Sequence record: OQ845957.1
DNA length: 64,000 nt
Direction: 5' to 3' (one strand)
Origin: Escherichia phage pEC-M719-6WT.1
Numbering within the stretch: position 1 is the stretch's first letter; each line of letters begins with the position of its first letter. Made by a program: the position numbers and the translations under genes. The notes below the pieces were generated by a model that was not told the DNA's origin, did no database searches, and worked only from the letters and a program-made list of their open reading frames with translations. Shown in pieces: positions 55,859 to 61,024 of the stretch.

Positions 55859-56233
55859 ATGACCAAAAGAACAAACAAAGGCCAATTCAAAAAAGGCCAA
55901 TCTGGTAACCCATCAGGGAGACCAAAAGGTTCCCGTAACAAGAGTTCTCTTGTAAAAGCCCAATTAACCATTGACAACTCAGCAGAGTTTGCTGCAAAGT
56001 TGTTTGAAGCAATCGTCACCAGAGACCCTGTAAAGCTTGCAGAGTTTGGTCTTTCACCAAATGATGTTCAGCTAAAATCCATGATGGAGGCTGGTAAGGT
56101 CATCATGACCCACTCAGCAGGTGAGATGAAAGCTATTGCGGTTGATAACAAGAAGAACCCTGATAATGTCGGGGGTAATACTCCACAGGAGAATAAACCA
56201 ACGTTCTCTCCAGTGGCAGCGATTAAAAGATAA
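55859..56233 (+). CDS. hypothetical basic protein
   Basis: N-terminal KGQSGNPSGRPKGSRNK motif; 124 aa. Confidence 0.3.
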   Translation: MTKRTNKGQFKKGQSGNPSGRPKGSRNKSSLVKAQLTIDNSAEFAAKLFEAIVTRDPVKLAEFGLSPNDVQLKSMMEAGKVIMTHSAGEMKAIAVDNKKNPDNVGGNTPQENKPTFSPVAAIKR

Positions 56234-56313: not shown

Positions 56314-57729
56314 ATGAGCGAATTATTTAACCACTCAAACCTTCATCAAGGTCGTACTGAAAATGGTGCTGTAAACCACACCTCTTCAATGTCAGCCTTG
56401 GTAGACTTCTACAAAGCTGCTGGCTCTAGCCGCAACTACGTAGAGAAACTTCCAAATCTTTTCTACAAAGCTTTACGGGAAGATATTGATGTTGCTGTAC
56501 GAATCCTGCTTCATATGCGAGATGCACGAGAAGGTATGGGTGAGCGTAAAGCGTTCAGAACTGTTTTGACTGAATCCATCAAAAGCAACATCCTAGACTC
56601 TTTCCAAGTTCTACGTATCATGGAAAAGATTTCTGAACTAGGCCGTTATGATGACTTTAAAATCTTCGTAGGTACTCGATACGAAACAGATGCTTTCAAA
56701 CAACTTGAAGCAGCACTGTTAGACCCTAATACTGCACAGTTAGCTGCAAAGTGGTTACCAAGGGTTAAGCGTCGTCATATGAACTTTGTAAACCGCTTCT
56801 GTAAGTTTGCAAAGCTAAGTCAGAAAGAGTACCGACTGTTACTGTCAGCCTTGTCTGATACAGTTGAGCAGAAGATTTCTGCAAATGCTTTTGGAGAGAT
56901 TGATTACAGTAAAATCCCTTCACTGGCTGCTGCACGTTACCAGAAGCTTTTCGGTCGTAAAGATGGTGAGCGTTACAAAGCATACATTGAAGCTCTTACT
57001 AAAGGTGAGACCAAGATTAATGCTGGTGCAGTTTACCCATACGATGTGATTAAGTCAGTAAATTACGGAAACGCTACAGTTGCCAATGAACAATGGAAAG
57101 CTTTACCAAACTGGATGGCAGATGGTGAAAACATTCTCTGCATGACAGACGTATCAAGCTCTATGACTTGGGAAAGACACGGTGCAGTTACTGCTTTAGA
57201 CATTGGTGTATCACTTGCATTGTACGTAGCAGAACGCAACACAGGTTGTTTTAAAGATGAGTTAATGGTTTACTCCAGCAGACCTCACTTTATTACACTG
57301 AGTGGAGATTTAGCACAACGTAAGCGTCAGGTAATGTCTCATGTTGAGTATGGTTCAACTAACCTTCAAGCAGCATTTGACAGAATTCTTGAAATTGGTG
57401 TTAAAAATGGCTTGACACAAGAAGCTATGCCAAGTAAGCTTATTATCTTCTCTGATATGGAATTCAATCAGGTTGATGGTGCAAATGGCCTTACTAACTT
57501 TGAAGCAATTCAGAGTAAGTACAAAAAAGCTGGATATGAGATGCCACAACTGGTATTCTGGTACTTAGCTGACCGTAACGGTAATTGCGAAGTGTCTGTA
57601 AAGGATAACGGAGTAGCAATGGTTTCAGGTTTCTCTCCAGCCACCTTAAAAGCTTTGCTTGGTGGTGAGAAGTTTGACCCAATTAGCGTTATGCTTAAAG
57701 CAGTTATGATTGAGCGTTACGACTGGTAA
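56314..57729 (+). CDS. vWA (MIDAS) domain protein with N-terminal helical domain; possibly Ro60/TROVE-like
   Basis: C-terminal MIDAS-like motif CMTDVSSSM; ~270 aa helical N-terminal region; domain order matches Ro60-type proteins (architecture only). Confidence 0.45.
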   Translation: MSELFNHSNLHQGRTENGAVNHTSSMSALVDFYKAAGSSRNYVEKLPNLFYKALREDIDVAVRILLHMRDAREGMGERKAFRTVLTESIKSNILDSFQVLRIMEKISELGRYDDFKIFVGTRYETDAFKQLEAALLDPNTAQLAAKWLPRVKRRHMNFVNRFCKFAKLSQKEYRLLLSALSDTVEQKISANAFGEIDYSKIPSLAAARYQKLFGRKDGERYKAYIEALTKGETKINAGAVYPYDVIKSVNYGNATVANEQWKALPNWMADGENILCMTDVSSSMTWERHGAVTALDIGVSLALYVAERNTGCFKDELMVYSSRPHFITLSGDLAQRKRQVMSHVEYGSTNLQAAFDRILEIGVKNGLTQEAMPSKLIIFSDMEFNQVDGANGLTNFEAIQSKYKKAGYEMPQLVFWYLADRNGNCEVSVKDNGVAMVSGFSPATLKALLGGEKFDPISVMLKAVMIERYDW

Positions 57730-57746: not shown

Positions 57747-57775
57747 TTGACAAAGTGTTTAATACCCTTTAATAT
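57747..57775 (+). promoter_or_regulatory. sigma70-like promoter (TTGACA-N17-TAATAT) inside 10-bp inverted repeat AAAGGGTATT/AATACCCTTT
   Basis: Direct reading; palindrome overlaps -35 and spacer. Confidence 0.5.
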
Positions 57776-57837: not shown

Positions 57838-57867
57838 TTGACAACCACTAAAAAATAGTGCTATAGT
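57838..57867 (+). promoter_or_regulatory. sigma70-like promoter (TTGACA-N18-TATAGT) for tRNA cluster, with flanking palindromes
   Basis: Palindromes AGAGATTTTAAAAAATCTCT upstream and CACTAAAAAATAGTG in spacer; first tRNA starts ~28 nt downstream. Confidence 0.5.
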
Positions 57868-57894: not shown

Positions 57895-57971
57895 CTCTGT
57901 TTAGCTCAGTTTGGTAGAGCGTTCCGTTTGGGGCGGTAAGGCCAGAGGTTCAAGTCCTCTAACAGAGACCA
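57895..57971 (+). tRNA. tRNA-Pro (anticodon TGG, tentative)
   Basis: 7-bp acceptor CTCTGTT/AACAGAG, T-arm AGAGG-TTCAAGT-CCTCT, encoded CCA. Confidence 0.55.
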
Positions 57972-57978
57972 AATTAAT

Positions 57979-58053
57979 GTCGTAGAAGGCAAATGGTTAG
58001 CCACCTGACCTTCAATCAGTTGCTCGCGGGTTCGAATCCCGTCTACGACTCCA
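57979..58053 (+). tRNA. tRNA-Glu (anticodon TTC, tentative)
   Basis: Acceptor GTCGTAG/CTACGAC, T-loop TTCGAAT, CCA end. Confidence 0.5.
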
Positions 58054-58138
58054 AATTTGACAGAAGACCAAATACAGCAAACAACTTTTACTTTTCGCGC
58101 ATAGAAAACATAAAAAGCTTGGTCTGGTCATTAAGAAT

Positions 58139-58215
58139 TGCGGGTATAGAGAAAGGGCGTCTCACATGTCTCATTAGCATGGTATCGGCAGGTTCGACTC
58201 CTGCACCCGCCTCCA
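58139..58215 (+). tRNA. tRNA with CAT anticodon (Met/Ile2/initiator unresolved); 1:72 mismatch
   Basis: Anticodon arm CATGT-CTCATTA-GCATG, T-arm GCAGG-TTCGACT-CCTGC. Confidence 0.5.
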
Positions 58216-58296
58216 AATTTACAGAAGACCGTTTACAGCAATTCAAACAATTTTATCGGAAAATTAAAATGAATACGGTCTGGTAATGTTAAACAT

Positions 58297-58373
58297 GGTT
58301 AGGAAGCACATAAGGCATGTGCGGTCGGCTGTTAACCGAATGGCACAGGGTTCGAATCCCTGACTAACCGCCA
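58297..58373 (+). tRNA. tRNA-Asn (anticodon GTT)
   Basis: Anticodon loop CTGTTAA, T-arm CAGGG-TTCGAAT-CCCTG, CCA end. Confidence 0.6.
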
Positions 58374-58383
58374 AAATTTAAAT

Positions 58384-58471
58384 GCGTCGTTATCCCGTAG
58401 ATGGAAGCGGTGGTGACTGTAAATCACTTGTCATTACGACTCGGTAGGTTCGACTCCTTCACGGCGCACCA
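58384..58471 (+). tRNA. tRNA-Tyr (anticodon GTA), class II
   Basis: 88 nt with long variable arm; anticodon loop CTGTAAA. Confidence 0.6.
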
Positions 58472-58477
58472 AACAAA

Positions 58478-58555
58478 GGTTATGTAGTTTAATTTGGTTA
58501 AAATACCTCCCTGTCACGGAGGAAGATGTGGGTTCAAGTCCCATCATAACCGCCA
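58478..58555 (+). tRNA. tRNA-Asp (anticodon GTC)
   Basis: Acceptor GGTTATG/CATAACC; anticodon arm CCTCC-CTGTCAC-GGAGG. Confidence 0.65.
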
Positions 58556-58975
58556 ATTTTGAGAGGGCTTTTTAGCCCCTCCCTTAAAGAGTTCTTACGA
58601 GTATTCTTTAAAGGAGCAGAAGACCAAATTCAGCAAGTTACTTAAAATTTCAAGCCAATTTAATTTTGAAAAATTTAAAACTTGGTCTGGTTCCAACAAA
58701 TTTACAGAAGACCGTTTACAGCAATTTAAATCTATTTCTCTCAAAAAGAAAAGGTGAAGGTTCGATTCCTTCACACGTTACGGCGTGTTGGTGTAATGGA
58801 AGCACTTTAGATAATAACGGTCTGGTAATCCTCTTTGCAGTGACTTATGGAGCTAATATATCGTCCCATGAGTGCCGATGAATTTCCTTAGCATGATTCT
58901 AGATTAGCTTAATAGGAAATGACTCTACAAGCCCTTTAGCAAGGTTTGCGTAGGTTACTGCAAAGATGATTTAAT

Positions 58976-59051
58976 GGGAGTGTAGCAGAATGGTGATGCG
59001 GCAGACTTTTAATCTGACAGGCGACGGGTTCGAATCCCTCCACTCCTACCA
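58976..59051 (+). tRNA. tRNA-Lys (anticodon TTT)
   Basis: Anticodon loop CTTTTAA; T-loop TTCGAAT; weak T-stem. Confidence 0.5.
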
Positions 59052-59055
59052 ATAT

Positions 59056-59132
59056 GGTTCAGTCGCAGATAAGGTAATGCAAGGGTTTCATAAGCCCTAT
59101 GAATGTGGGTTCGATTCCCACCTGAACCTCCA
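59056..59132 (+). tRNA. tRNA with CAT anticodon (Met or Ile2)
   Basis: Perfect acceptor GGTTCAG/CTGAACC; anticodon arm AGGGT-TTCATAA-GCCCT; T-arm GTGGG-TTCGATT-CCCAC. Confidence 0.65.
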
Positions 59133-59134
59133 AT

Positions 59135-59209
59135 TGTGGGTTAGCATAAATGGTAATGCAAACGGCTGATAACCGTTAGAAGAGGGTTCGATACCCTCAC
59201 CTACAACCA
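59135..59209 (+). tRNA. tRNA-Ile (anticodon GAT)
   Basis: Anticodon arm AACGG-CTGATAA-CCGTT; T-arm GAGGG-TTCGATA-CCCTC. Confidence 0.65.
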
Positions 59210-59224
59210 ATTTCAATAAAGTTG

Positions 59225-59253
59225 TTGACATTGAGATGTGACTACTTTATAGT
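59225..59253 (+). promoter_or_regulatory. sigma70 consensus-like promoter (TTGACA-N17-TATAGT) inside tRNA cluster
   Basis: Near-consensus hexamers with exact 17-bp spacer. Confidence 0.6.
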
Positions 59254-59486
59254 TACCTTAGTTTTCGTTAGCGTAGCGTCTATTTTGCAAACTTAAAAAT
59301 AAATGCAAACGATAATGTTTTTCTGGCAGTAGCTTAATAGGCTAAACACCAGTGAGGTCTTCCAATCCCTCATCAAAGAATTTGGCGTACTAGCCCACGG
59401 TATGATTAATAAAGTGGGCAACATTCTAAAGGGTATCCCTTATGGGGCTTGGCTTAAATGCAATGAGTACCCTTTAAAATGTTAAT
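59254..59486 (+). ncRNA. candidate structured ncRNA downstream of internal promoter
   Basis: ~230 nt with no ORF and no canonical tRNA fold; nested stems GCCCAC..GTGGGC and AAGGGTA..TACCCTT. Confidence 0.3.
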
Positions 59487-60610: not shown

Positions 60611-61024
60611 ATGAAAATATGTAGTACTTGCAGAATACCAAAAGATGAAAGCTTATTCCATAAGAATAAGAACAAGAAAGATGGTCTTCAAAGTCAATGC
60701 AAAGACTGTGCAAGACTTCGTGATGCAAAGAGTTATCAAGCAAATGATAGAAGGAAAGAGTCTATTAAAAGCACTCGTAACTTCAAGAGAGAGTATAACA
60801 AGGCTCTAGCTAGAAGGTACAAAGCTTTATGTAAATGTCATATATGTGGTGAGAAAGAGCCAGTTGCACTGGATTTACACCATACAGACCCTTCCAAGAA
60901 AGATTTGAATCCTGCATCGCTTTATTCATACTCCACAAAAAGATTAAAAGATGAAATCAGAAAGTGTATTGTCTTGTGCGCTAACTGTCACAGAAAAGTA
61001 CATGCTGGTATTATTAAAGTTTAA
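60611..61024 (+). CDS. HNH endonuclease (zinc-finger type), inserted between tRNA genes
   Basis: HNH core LDLHHTDPSKK...CANCHRKVHAG plus CxxC pairs. Confidence 0.6.
   Translation: MKICSTCRIPKDESLFHKNKNKKDGLQSQCKDCARLRDAKSYQANDRRKESIKSTRNFKREYNKALARRYKALCKCHICGEKEPVALDLHHTDPSKKDLNPASLYSYSTKRLKDEIRKCIVLCANCHRKVHAGIIKV

Follow-up and report, generated by a model that had tools for sequence, protein, structure and literature searches.

Candidate Y-RNA-type small RNA genes within the tRNA array of a Felixounavirus-like phage and their linkage to a Ro60-like protein gene

Introduction

Ro60 proteins and Y RNAs are conserved from bacteria to humans, and their roles in phages are almost unknown. For the DUF2828 branch of Ro60-like proteins, whose members are annotated as 'hypothetical', 'vWFA' or 'RNA-binding' proteins, RNA partners have not been identified in the literature found, in which DUF2828 itself receives just incidental mention in plants and tardigrades. 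A stretch of 64,000 nucleotides (nt) of Escherichia phage pEC-M719-6WT.1 (OQ845957.1; the window) has a gene of this branch followed by four repeat units set between transfer RNA (tRNA) genes, and the question raised by this locus is what these units are. A sequence-only reading of the window had offered processing signals, small stable RNAs, tRNA remnants or targets of a nearby HNH endonuclease. The analysis described here favours, with a probability of roughly 70 %, the view that the four units are Y-RNA-type small noncoding RNA (ncRNA) genes partnered with the Ro60-like protein encoded upstream. The phage genome in the window is Felixounavirus-like, and the region matches 294 phage records at 88–93 % DNA identity. 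Comparison loci are cited by L numbers where they need to be told apart.

The four units and their shared handle

The four copies that had been reported are present, with CAGAAGACCNNNNNCAGCAA at 58061, 58222, 58617 and 58705, always on the + strand. This sequence has four matches in 64 kb against 0.18 expected by chance, and four matches were reached in none of 100 shuffles. The units are listed below with the boundaries and scores assigned by R1, a covariance model of the handle that they share.

58054–58134, + strand: unit 1, simple hairpin (82.7 bits); outer helix 58058–61/58127–30, loop AGA 58062–64, inner helix 58065–71/58119–25, U-N-CAGCAA 58073–80, G 58126.
58215–58290, + strand: unit 2, simple hairpin (65.7 bits); outer helix TTAC/GTAA 58219–22/58283–86, inner helix AGACCGT/ACGGTCT 58226–32/58275–81, CAGCAA 58236–41, G 58282.
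58610–58697, + strand: unit 3, simple hairpin (60.1 bits); outer helix GGAGC/GTTCC 58613–17/58690–94 with a G-U pair, inner helix 58621–27/58682–88, CAGCAA 58631–36, G 58689.
58698–58832, + strand: unit 4, tRNA-like (YrlA-type; 72.1 bits); handle 58702–58724/58816–58828.

The pairing of AGACC with GGTCT that the sequence-only reading proposed is real and longer than it described, comprising a 7-bp inner helix and a 4–5-bp outer helix with an AGA/G loop between them. Read from the 5' end, the handle consists of the outer strand, the 3-nt loop AGA, the inner strand opening A-G, three A/U-rich nt and CAGCAA, the last placed exactly 10 nt from the inner-helix start. A variable interior follows, and the 3' half is made up of the inner strand ending C-U, a lone G and the outer strand. 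Copies 1 and 3 have AGACCAA/TTGGTCT as their inner helix and copies 2 and 4 have AGACCGT/ACGGTCT, while the outer helix occurs as TGAC/GTCA, TTAC/GTAA and GGAGC/GTTCC. Compensatory differences in both helices are already present between copies of one genome, and, read from the minus strand, the G-U pair of copy 3 becomes a C-A mismatch. The interiors of units 1–3 are 33–45 nt long and hold an AU-rich hairpin.

Conservation and covariation

Comparison with related phages had been suggested by the sequence-only reading as a check; ~247 Felixounavirus records keep the units. Close relatives (L001–L005 and Escherichia phage JohannRWettstein, Bas63) retain all four together with compensatory changes, and in relatives the outer helix of unit 2 changes from TTAC/GTAA to TTGC/GCAA. 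At 49–64 % protein identity (L201–L203 and L006), the order of DUF5681 gene, DUF2828 gene and tRNA array is retained, and the inter-tRNA spacers contain the same unit geometry built from unrelated helix sequences.

Over 26 aligned units, 84.8 % of cells are paired compared with 61 % in shuffles, and covariation was 0.653 compared with 0.207 in shuffled alignments (0 of 500 shuffles as high; slid controls 0.07–0.15). When 72 covariance-model hits were aligned, the inner helix was 97.3 % paired with 24–45 double changes per variable pair, and covariation was 0.798 against 0.193 shuffled. The consensus of these hits reads outer helix, N-N-A, A-G-R-N-Y-N-N (paired) and W-U-W-C-A-G-C-A-A on the 5' side and, after the interior, N-N-R-N-Y-C-U, G and outer helix on the 3' side. 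The unpaired U, CAGCAA and G of this consensus vary little or not at all; in alignment A4, six such unpaired positions (U22, C24, G26, C27, A30 and G292) are invariant or nearly so. The + strand is favoured by G-U pairs. A first scan for pairing lacked stringency (+ strand, 87 hits; − strand, 44 hits) and was replaced by a fixed-geometry scan and then by the covariance model. The units are strand-specific structured RNA elements. Among the earlier explanations, that of small stable RNAs gains support from the strand-specific covariation, from the conserved unpaired motif and from the adjacent Ro60-like gene.

Linkage to a Ro60-like gene

The Ro60-like gene ends 325 nt before the first unit and is encoded on the same strand, placing the units 325–1100 nt downstream.

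56314–57729, + strand: gene for a 471-aa Ro60-like protein with DUF2828 and DUF7788 (Pfam), PHROG 850 'RNA-binding protein'.

An AlphaFold2 model of this protein (35 homologs; predicted local distance difference test score, pLDDT, 86) was compared with the PDB by Foldseek. The top 11 structures were all full-length Ro60/TROVE proteins (E 1.7e-8 to 3.5e-5, template modelling (TM) scores 0.52–0.66, probability 1.00), including Ro60 of Thermus phage phiLo as the best match, Xenopus Ro60 and Deinococcus Rsr, and lower matches were to isolated von Willebrand factor A (vWA) domains only. The residues of the MIDAS (metal ion-dependent adhesion site), D279-x-S281-x-S283, T349 and D381, are invariant in the 35 homologs. 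The protein is thus predicted by modelling to have the full-length Ro60 fold, consisting of a TROVE ring and a C-terminal vWA domain with MIDAS. Only the fold comparison found Ro60; single-sequence phmmer and profile searches of the PDB matched neither Ro60 nor any other solved structure. The protein is 84 % identical to gp130 of Bas63.

R1 was searched at E≤1 against 1.04 Mb around DUF2828 genes, comprising 80 viral contigs and the window. All matches (84 of 84) were located on the strand of the DUF2828 gene; a smaller search yielded a weak match on the minus strand (21.4 bits, E 0.32). For distant loci (n=75, 38–49 % protein identity), at least one match was found in 38, and 34 of the 47 non-seed matches fell within 500 nt of the gene start or stop. 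Units directly adjoin the gene in Klebsiella phage KP13-16, Aeromonas phage LAh_9 (seven or eight in tandem) and Listeria phage LMTA-34. The negative control consisted of 0.91 Mb of other viral contigs from an exact-pattern viral scan (mostly chance single matches and a few Felixounavirus fragments); R1 matched none of ~92 unrelated contigs and only eight Felixounavirus fragments. Loci of Mycobacteriophage Faith1 (annotated 'Ro-like RNA binding protein') and of Enterococcus and Bacillus phages gave no convincing match with the AT-rich R1. In phages that differ greatly from one another, the units show genetic linkage to a protein with the Ro60 fold.

The uniform orientation bears on whether the units are merely repeats at the DNA level, such as tRNA pseudogene debris, recombination scars, elements resembling miniature inverted-repeat transposable elements (MITEs) or sites of an HNH homing endonuclease. 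In favour are the repetition of the units, their inverted-repeat ends, an HNH open reading frame (ORF) at 60611–61024 and the label 'tRNA pseudogene' that copy 4 bears in some GenBank records. However, pairing is kept while helix sequences change completely, G-U pairs make the structure strand-specific, the orientation relative to the DUF2828 gene is the same for every match in the R1 search, and there are just four copies in 64 kb. Such an origin is considered extremely improbable, and for the endonuclease targets proposed by the sequence-only reading nothing was found in favour, the HNH ORF being 1.8 kb off and the units having strand-specific, RNA-type structures.

A further explanation is that the units are spacers of a tRNA operon, acting as processing signals for RNase III, E or P, as punctuation or as by-product 'stable RNAs', with no link to a Ro-like protein. 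This would account for units 1 and 2 lying within 3–10 nt of tRNA ends, and it agrees with the region forming one transcription unit in which other spacers fold stably too. However, in 18 of the 38 distant loci with a match there is no tRNA gene for ~6 kb around, which indicates that the RNA tracks the protein gene and not tRNA arrays. Conversely, Erwinia phage vB_EamM-EAP4 (OR185440, labelled a partial genome; L213–L215, Ounavirinae) has an array of 27 tRNA genes with neither a Ro-like gene nor a credible unit. Neither the invariant unpaired UNCAGCAA nor a covarying tRNA-like cargo would be needed in a cleavage signal. Spacers of this kind are regarded as quite unlikely, and the earlier suggestion of pure processing signals is not supported, since the handle also accompanies the DUF2828 gene where tRNA genes are lacking.

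The tRNA-like domain of unit 4 and other cargo

The interior of unit 4 contains the following elements.

58735–58751, + strand: variable-arm-like hairpin UUUCU-CUCAAAA-AGAAA, immediately 5' to the T arm, the position that the V stem-loop has in YrlA (PMC4201824).
58756–58772, + strand: T arm GAAGG-UUCGAUU-CCUUC; across 10 homologous units the T stem is 100 % paired, and 3 of its pairs show double changes.
58773–58788, + strand: closed acceptor-like stem ACACGU-UACG-GCGUGU, abutting the T stem.
58789–58805, + strand: U8-like U and N9, then D arm GUGU-AAUGGAA-GCAC (58791–58805).

The perfect T arm noted by the sequence-only reading is present at 58754–58774, and the D-loop-like GTTGGTGTAATGG belongs to a genuine D arm with a U8-like TG in front. 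The closed acceptor stem and the variable-arm-like hairpin had been overlooked. L052, a phage with a protein of 41 % identity, has an almost identical D arm, GUGUAAUAGUAGCAC. Copy 4 had also been described as lacking a complete tRNA in normal order; ARAGORN calls nothing here and the order of the body is permuted. Unit 4 is a complete tRNA body opened at the anticodon stem, with its acceptor capped and the handle in the place of the anticodon stem.

Pairs in this domain were counted in ten units from eight phages. The acceptor stem of relatives has 7 bp of unrelated sequence and is 97 % paired, with all seven pairs changed on both sides. Among close relatives, ACACG/CGUGU is replaced by ACUCGGC/GUCGAGU, and the length of unit 4 is 137–138 nt compared with 127 nt here. 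A normal-order cloverleaf with open acceptor and anticodon arm is absent, the real acceptor being capped by UACG. The Rfam tRNA model scores 29.9 bits over 58711–58780 (gathering threshold 29), a score driven by the T arm, with handle sequence paired as a false acceptor. As the acceptor is loop-capped and there is no anticodon loop, copy 4 of the window cannot mature into a decoding tRNA. The idea of a tRNA remnant is right as to derivation; the domain is, however, conserved in permuted form with compensatory changes and is not decaying.

In three distant relatives (L203 8004–8062, L052 7733–7791 and L065 7855–7915) the loop capping the acceptor reads N-CCA-(A/U)CUAU, equivalent to an encoded discriminator and CCA followed by a 5-nt leader before G+1. 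By analogy with the YrlA RNA reported from Mycobacterium smegmatis, RNase P could cleave at this site and leave a split, CCA-ended tRNA-like RNA. A second class of cargo is a nearly invariant module, AACCUUUCUGGAGGGGAAAG(C/U)AAAAACUCGCCAAAA, found on the handle in six uncultured phage contigs and always adjoining the DUF2828 gene; Rfam gave no match for the module when searched with the unit of L007. A third class has a normal-order tRNA body (D, anticodon and T arms) in which the handle replaces or extends the acceptor stem (L026 5747–5866 and L052 8509–8624). The six units of the second class are as follows.

L007, 138–289: second-cargo unit.
L008, 3122–3239: second-cargo unit.
L009, 5265–5379: second-cargo unit.
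L011, 1255–1382: second-cargo unit.
L029, 5727–5837: second-cargo unit.
L030, 5670–5782: second-cargo unit.

Cargo on one handle therefore varies between permuted tRNA bodies, normal-order tRNA bodies and the conserved CCUUUCUGGAGGGGAAAG module. By analogy, this diversity fits the modular logic of Y RNAs, and the variety of tRNA-derived cargo illustrates clearly how RNAs evolve in modular fashion from the tRNA genes of phage tRNA arrays.

The tRNA array and neighbouring genes

The tRNA genes run along the + strand from 57895 to 59209 with the four units interleaved. For unit 1, the CCA of tRNA-Glu lies 4 nt ahead of the start and tRNA-Met 8 nt beyond the end; units 1 and 2 start 3–4 nt past the upstream CCA and stop 8–10 nt ahead of the downstream tRNA. 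Two promoter-like sites precede the array.

57747–57775, + strand: sigma-70-like promoter TTGACA-17-TAATAT downstream of the Ro-like gene (10/12 consensus positions; identified by consensus match only).
57838–57867, + strand: strong sigma-70-like promoter TTGACA-18-TATAGT with TG, at the head of the tRNA/ncRNA transcription unit (11/12 consensus positions).

No + strand terminator-like site was found between these promoters and the next promoter at 59225–59253, which suggests that the units are co-transcribed with the tRNAs. This arrangement is relevant to the possibility that the units are cis-regulatory, serving as autoregulatory sites in the untranslated regions of the Ro-like mRNA and not as free RNAs. 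In several distant loci a unit stops 3–50 nt before the start codon or begins 11–40 nt past the stop codon, as such sites might. In the window, however, both promoter-like sites separate the gene from the units, and six tRNAs are interspersed among the units over 780 nt; bacterial Y RNAs are likewise co-transcribed with rsr and then processed (PMC4201824). Autoregulatory sites are thus judged very unlikely.

Two tRNA genes of the window were not called by ARAGORN. The first, at 57979–58053, is tRNA-Glu(UUC) (Rfam tRNA model, 53.7 bits) and the second, at 58386–58471, is tRNA-Tyr(GUA), which belongs to class II, has a long variable arm and scores 22.8 bits. Relatives such as Bas63 have annotations for both genes, and the tRNA-Tyr counterpart in L202 is called by ARAGORN. 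The spacer after unit 4 (58826–58975) has a fold of ~150 nt with a closing stem of ~20 bp (−44.6 kcal/mol, z −4.0). Its counterpart in L201 (7277–7421) has the same shape with a different stem sequence (z −5.1), and each contains an internal hairpin with the loop CUUUAGCAA or CUUAAGCAA, respectively. This element has no handle and no R1 match and is possibly another ncRNA. Between tRNA-Asp and unit 3 (58561–58611, z −3.9), adjacent hairpins GAGAGGGCUUUUUAGCCCCUCCC and UUAAAGAGUUCUUACGAGUAUUCUUUAA are kept in L201 and L202 with altered sequence; they are not an obvious terminator because no U-tract follows them. A weak Rfam match to permuted transfer-messenger RNA (RF04321) at 59152–59337 (32.2 bits against a gathering threshold of 47, E 2.7e-4) covers tRNA-Ile and the next spacer, in which the strong promoter-like site 59225–59253 is located, and is probably driven by the tRNA part.

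In Bas63 (L204, MZ501086), the minus-strand 'hypothetical proteins' bas63_0137 and bas63_0138 are annotated over units 3–4 and the next spacer (2716–2990), and other GenBank records have 'hypothetical protein' or 'tRNA-OTHER/pseudo' at this site. These annotations, like the window ORFs 58595–58774 (−) and 58666–58881 (+), are probably spurious calls over ncRNA genes. Coding ORFs across the units (57993–58286, 58666–58881 and minus-strand ORFs) were rejected in view of the compensatory helix changes and of frame-shifting length differences among close relatives; the unit 4 length difference shifts the frame and makes the overlapping ORF 58666–58881 unlikely to be coding.

Directly upstream of the Ro-like gene is a DUF5681 gene (55859–56233, 124 aa, PHROG 4114), which is syntenic in L201–L203. 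RNA ligase genes occur within a few kb of the DUF2828 gene in other phages, with RtcB in Listeria phage LMTA-34 (L206, 6850–8061) and RNA ligase 2 in Aeromonas phage LAh_9 (L210, 9103–9386); these neighbours echo the rsr-yrlBA-rtcBA operon of Salmonella.

Weight of evidence and proposed mechanism

The units might also be structured RNAs that act independently of Ro, as mimics or decoys of tRNA for anticodon nucleases, tRNA-modifying enzymes or ribosome-associated factors, sharing only a tRNA/RNA-repair module with the DUF2828 gene. The tRNA-like domain is strongly conserved, DUF2828 genes often adjoin tRNA arrays and the RNA ligases RtcB and Rnl2, and both the missing canonical Ro-binding motif and the synteny of the DUF5681 gene speak for this reading. 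However, conservation of the handle combined with widely differing cargo is the logic of Y RNAs, units lie tens of nt from the DUF2828 gene in loci without tRNAs, and in EAP4, where the gene is missing, so are the units. This explanation is considered unlikely. All four alternatives are less consistent than the Y-RNA-type reading with the strand bias, the proximity to the gene, the tRNA-free loci and the gene-minus control.

Several results weigh against the reading of the units as Y-RNA-type genes with a Ro60-like partner. The canonical Ro-binding motif (GNCGAAN0-1G/GGUCCGA) is absent from the units; their 5' strand reads (U/G/A)(A/G)C-AGA-AGACC with no CGAA, and NNA-AG and UNCAGCAA are conserved instead. 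The Rfam models YrlA (RF02553, gathering threshold 69 bits) and metazoan Y_RNA (RF00019) gave no match to the window units at E≤10, nor did any other relevant family; the Y-RNA lead in the sequence-only reading was therefore correct in kind, but the units are not recognised by either model. The sole YrlA-like match was to a homologous unit in L007 (24.7 bits, E 0.019, with 69 needed). Weak Rfam matches to Dictyostelium class I RNA, HPnc0260 and idnO were far below threshold and were treated as chance. In Pfam at E≤10 the protein matched only DUF2828, DUF7788 and, as a sub-threshold chance match, PSMA-like_N (E 0.15), and not TROVE, so its mode of RNA binding may differ. Half of the distant DUF2828 loci have no match with R1, which is a first-pass model, and the comparison of gene-minus with RNA-minus rests on one genome, EAP4. 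Synteny of the DUF5681 gene means that linkage cannot tell which neighbouring protein binds the RNAs, and the DUF5681 protein might be a component or an alternative partner. Finally, the most distant seeds came from a scan that demanded pairing, making the covariation counts partly circular; the orthologous comparisons and the covariance-model search are not affected. As the tests by motif and Rfam membership failed and the partner is Ro60 by fold, the units are classed as Y-RNA-like with a distinct handle tied to the DUF2828 branch.

On the Y-RNA-type reading, the units and the tRNAs would be transcribed jointly on the + strand, starting at the promoters 57747–57775 and 57838–57867. Release would be by tRNA enzymes, with RNase P acting at the 5' end of the downstream tRNA and 3'-end processing at the upstream tRNA; given the 3–10 nt that separate units 1 and 2 from tRNA ends, ordinary tRNA processing would free them. 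Each RNA would close on itself through the conserved handle, which is proposed as the docking site of the Ro60-like ring protein because the two are linked across many phages. The variable interior would be the effector module, presenting short AU-rich hairpins in copies 1–3 and a tRNA mimic in copy 4 that could draw tRNA-binding enzymes or nucleases. The ribonucleoprotein (RNP) would most likely tether or gate a host RNA enzyme, such as an exoribonuclease or a tRNA repair or cleavage factor, and might protect or remodel RNA in infection and so aid evasion of defence. A role in RNA surveillance, repair or counter-defence is suggested by the nearby RtcB and RNA ligase 2 genes of Listeria and Aeromonas phages and by the Ppl phenotype of gp130.

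A broader proposal, for and against which the odds appear about even, is that the units belong to an unrecognised and widespread class of phage Y RNAs in which the handle is the cognate ligand of the DUF2828 Ro60 branch, the cargo is interchangeable and the RNPs function in tRNA/RNA surveillance or in counter-defence, for example against Ppl. The class would extend to phages of Enterobacteria, Klebsiella, Aeromonas, Listeria and Vibrio and to many uncultured groups. Within it, permuted bodies with encoded CCA and an RNase P-type leader could open into split, CCA-ended tRNA-like molecules. Mutable RNA candidates are now available in the tractable Felixounavirus group, including Bas63, whose protein has a counter-defence phenotype, and the consensus handle makes RNA binding by the protein, and its choice of RNA, directly testable. 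On this evidence, ~250 Felixounavirus genomes and others, such as those of Listeria P100-like phages, would carry unannotated ncRNA genes, with spurious ORFs or 'pseudo-tRNAs' in some records.

Comparison with known Y RNA systems

Y RNAs of bacteria and phages are encoded on the strand of the Ro60 gene and no more than a few kb from it; a genome usually has two or more, of which one is tRNA-like and another a simple hairpin, and the tRNA-like domain of YrlA has the order V, T, acceptor stem-loop, D (PMC4201824). The units resemble the YrlA/YrlB and Rsr systems (Chen et al. 2014, PMC4201824; RF02553) in being encoded, several to a genome, <1 kb from a Ro60-type gene and on its strand, although the likeness of that gene to Ro60 is one of fold and not of sequence. 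Pairing of the 5' end with the 3' end gives a stem that contains an internal loop, as described by Chen et al. Unit 4 has the V-T-AS-D order of YrlA (58735–58805; AS, acceptor stem), units 1–3 are simple hairpins like YrlB, and the acceptor loop of some relatives encodes CCA and a leader, recalling the RNase P-cleaved YrlA of M. smegmatis. In contrast to YrlA and YrlB, the handle has an NNA/G loop, an A-G...C-U helix and the unpaired UNCAGCAA at a fixed 10-nt distance in the absence of GNCGAAN0-1G, the partner is of DUF2828 type and not Pfam TROVE, and the RNAs lie within a tRNA array.

Thermus phage phiLo likewise combines a phage Ro60 ring protein with adjacent small stem-bulge-stem RNAs; its Ro60 binds two adjacent Yrl RNAs, Yrl1 and Yrl2 (PMC12135203; PDB 9KOP, 9L5Y), and is proposed to hijack host RNA enzymes (PNPase). 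The phiLo report, with PMC4201824, describes a Y RNA stem that binds Ro60 and a loop that tethers PNPase or other factors. Unlike the units of the window, the phiLo RNAs carry CGAA and lie upstream of the gene, and the part of the report covered gives them no tRNA-like module (PMC12135203); the two proteins are ~17 % identical.

Bas63 gp130, Ro60-like by structure, has been shown genetically to counter the Ppl defence (2024 preprint, PhageMaP, PMC11482910), and its authors went no further than to suggest that Y RNAs could be among the annotated tRNAs. The protein studied here is its ortholog in an equal position upstream of the tRNA array, and all four units are present in Bas63. The candidates differ from those speculated on in being unannotated inter-tRNA units, not annotated tRNAs, and two of them are overlapped in GenBank by minus-strand 'hypothetical protein' ORFs.

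A literature search, not covering all journals, found no publication naming these RNAs. Two other systems show parts of the arrangement. In the circularly permuted tRNA genes of the red alga Cyanidioschyzon merolae, the tRNA body is encoded with its 3' half ahead of its 5' half, as in copy 4. In the tRNA cluster of phage T4, small non-tRNA stable RNAs are co-transcribed within the cluster; to our knowledge these have no Ro60 link. The metazoan Y RNAs differ from the units in conserved nucleotides and bulge geometry and in having no tRNA-like domain. With their partner Ro60 they nevertheless share the overall plan, in which a conserved bulged closing stem for Ro60 is combined with a variable effector loop in about four paralogs per genome, and the 5' strand of hY1, GUCCGAAG, loosely resembles GACAGAAG of the units.

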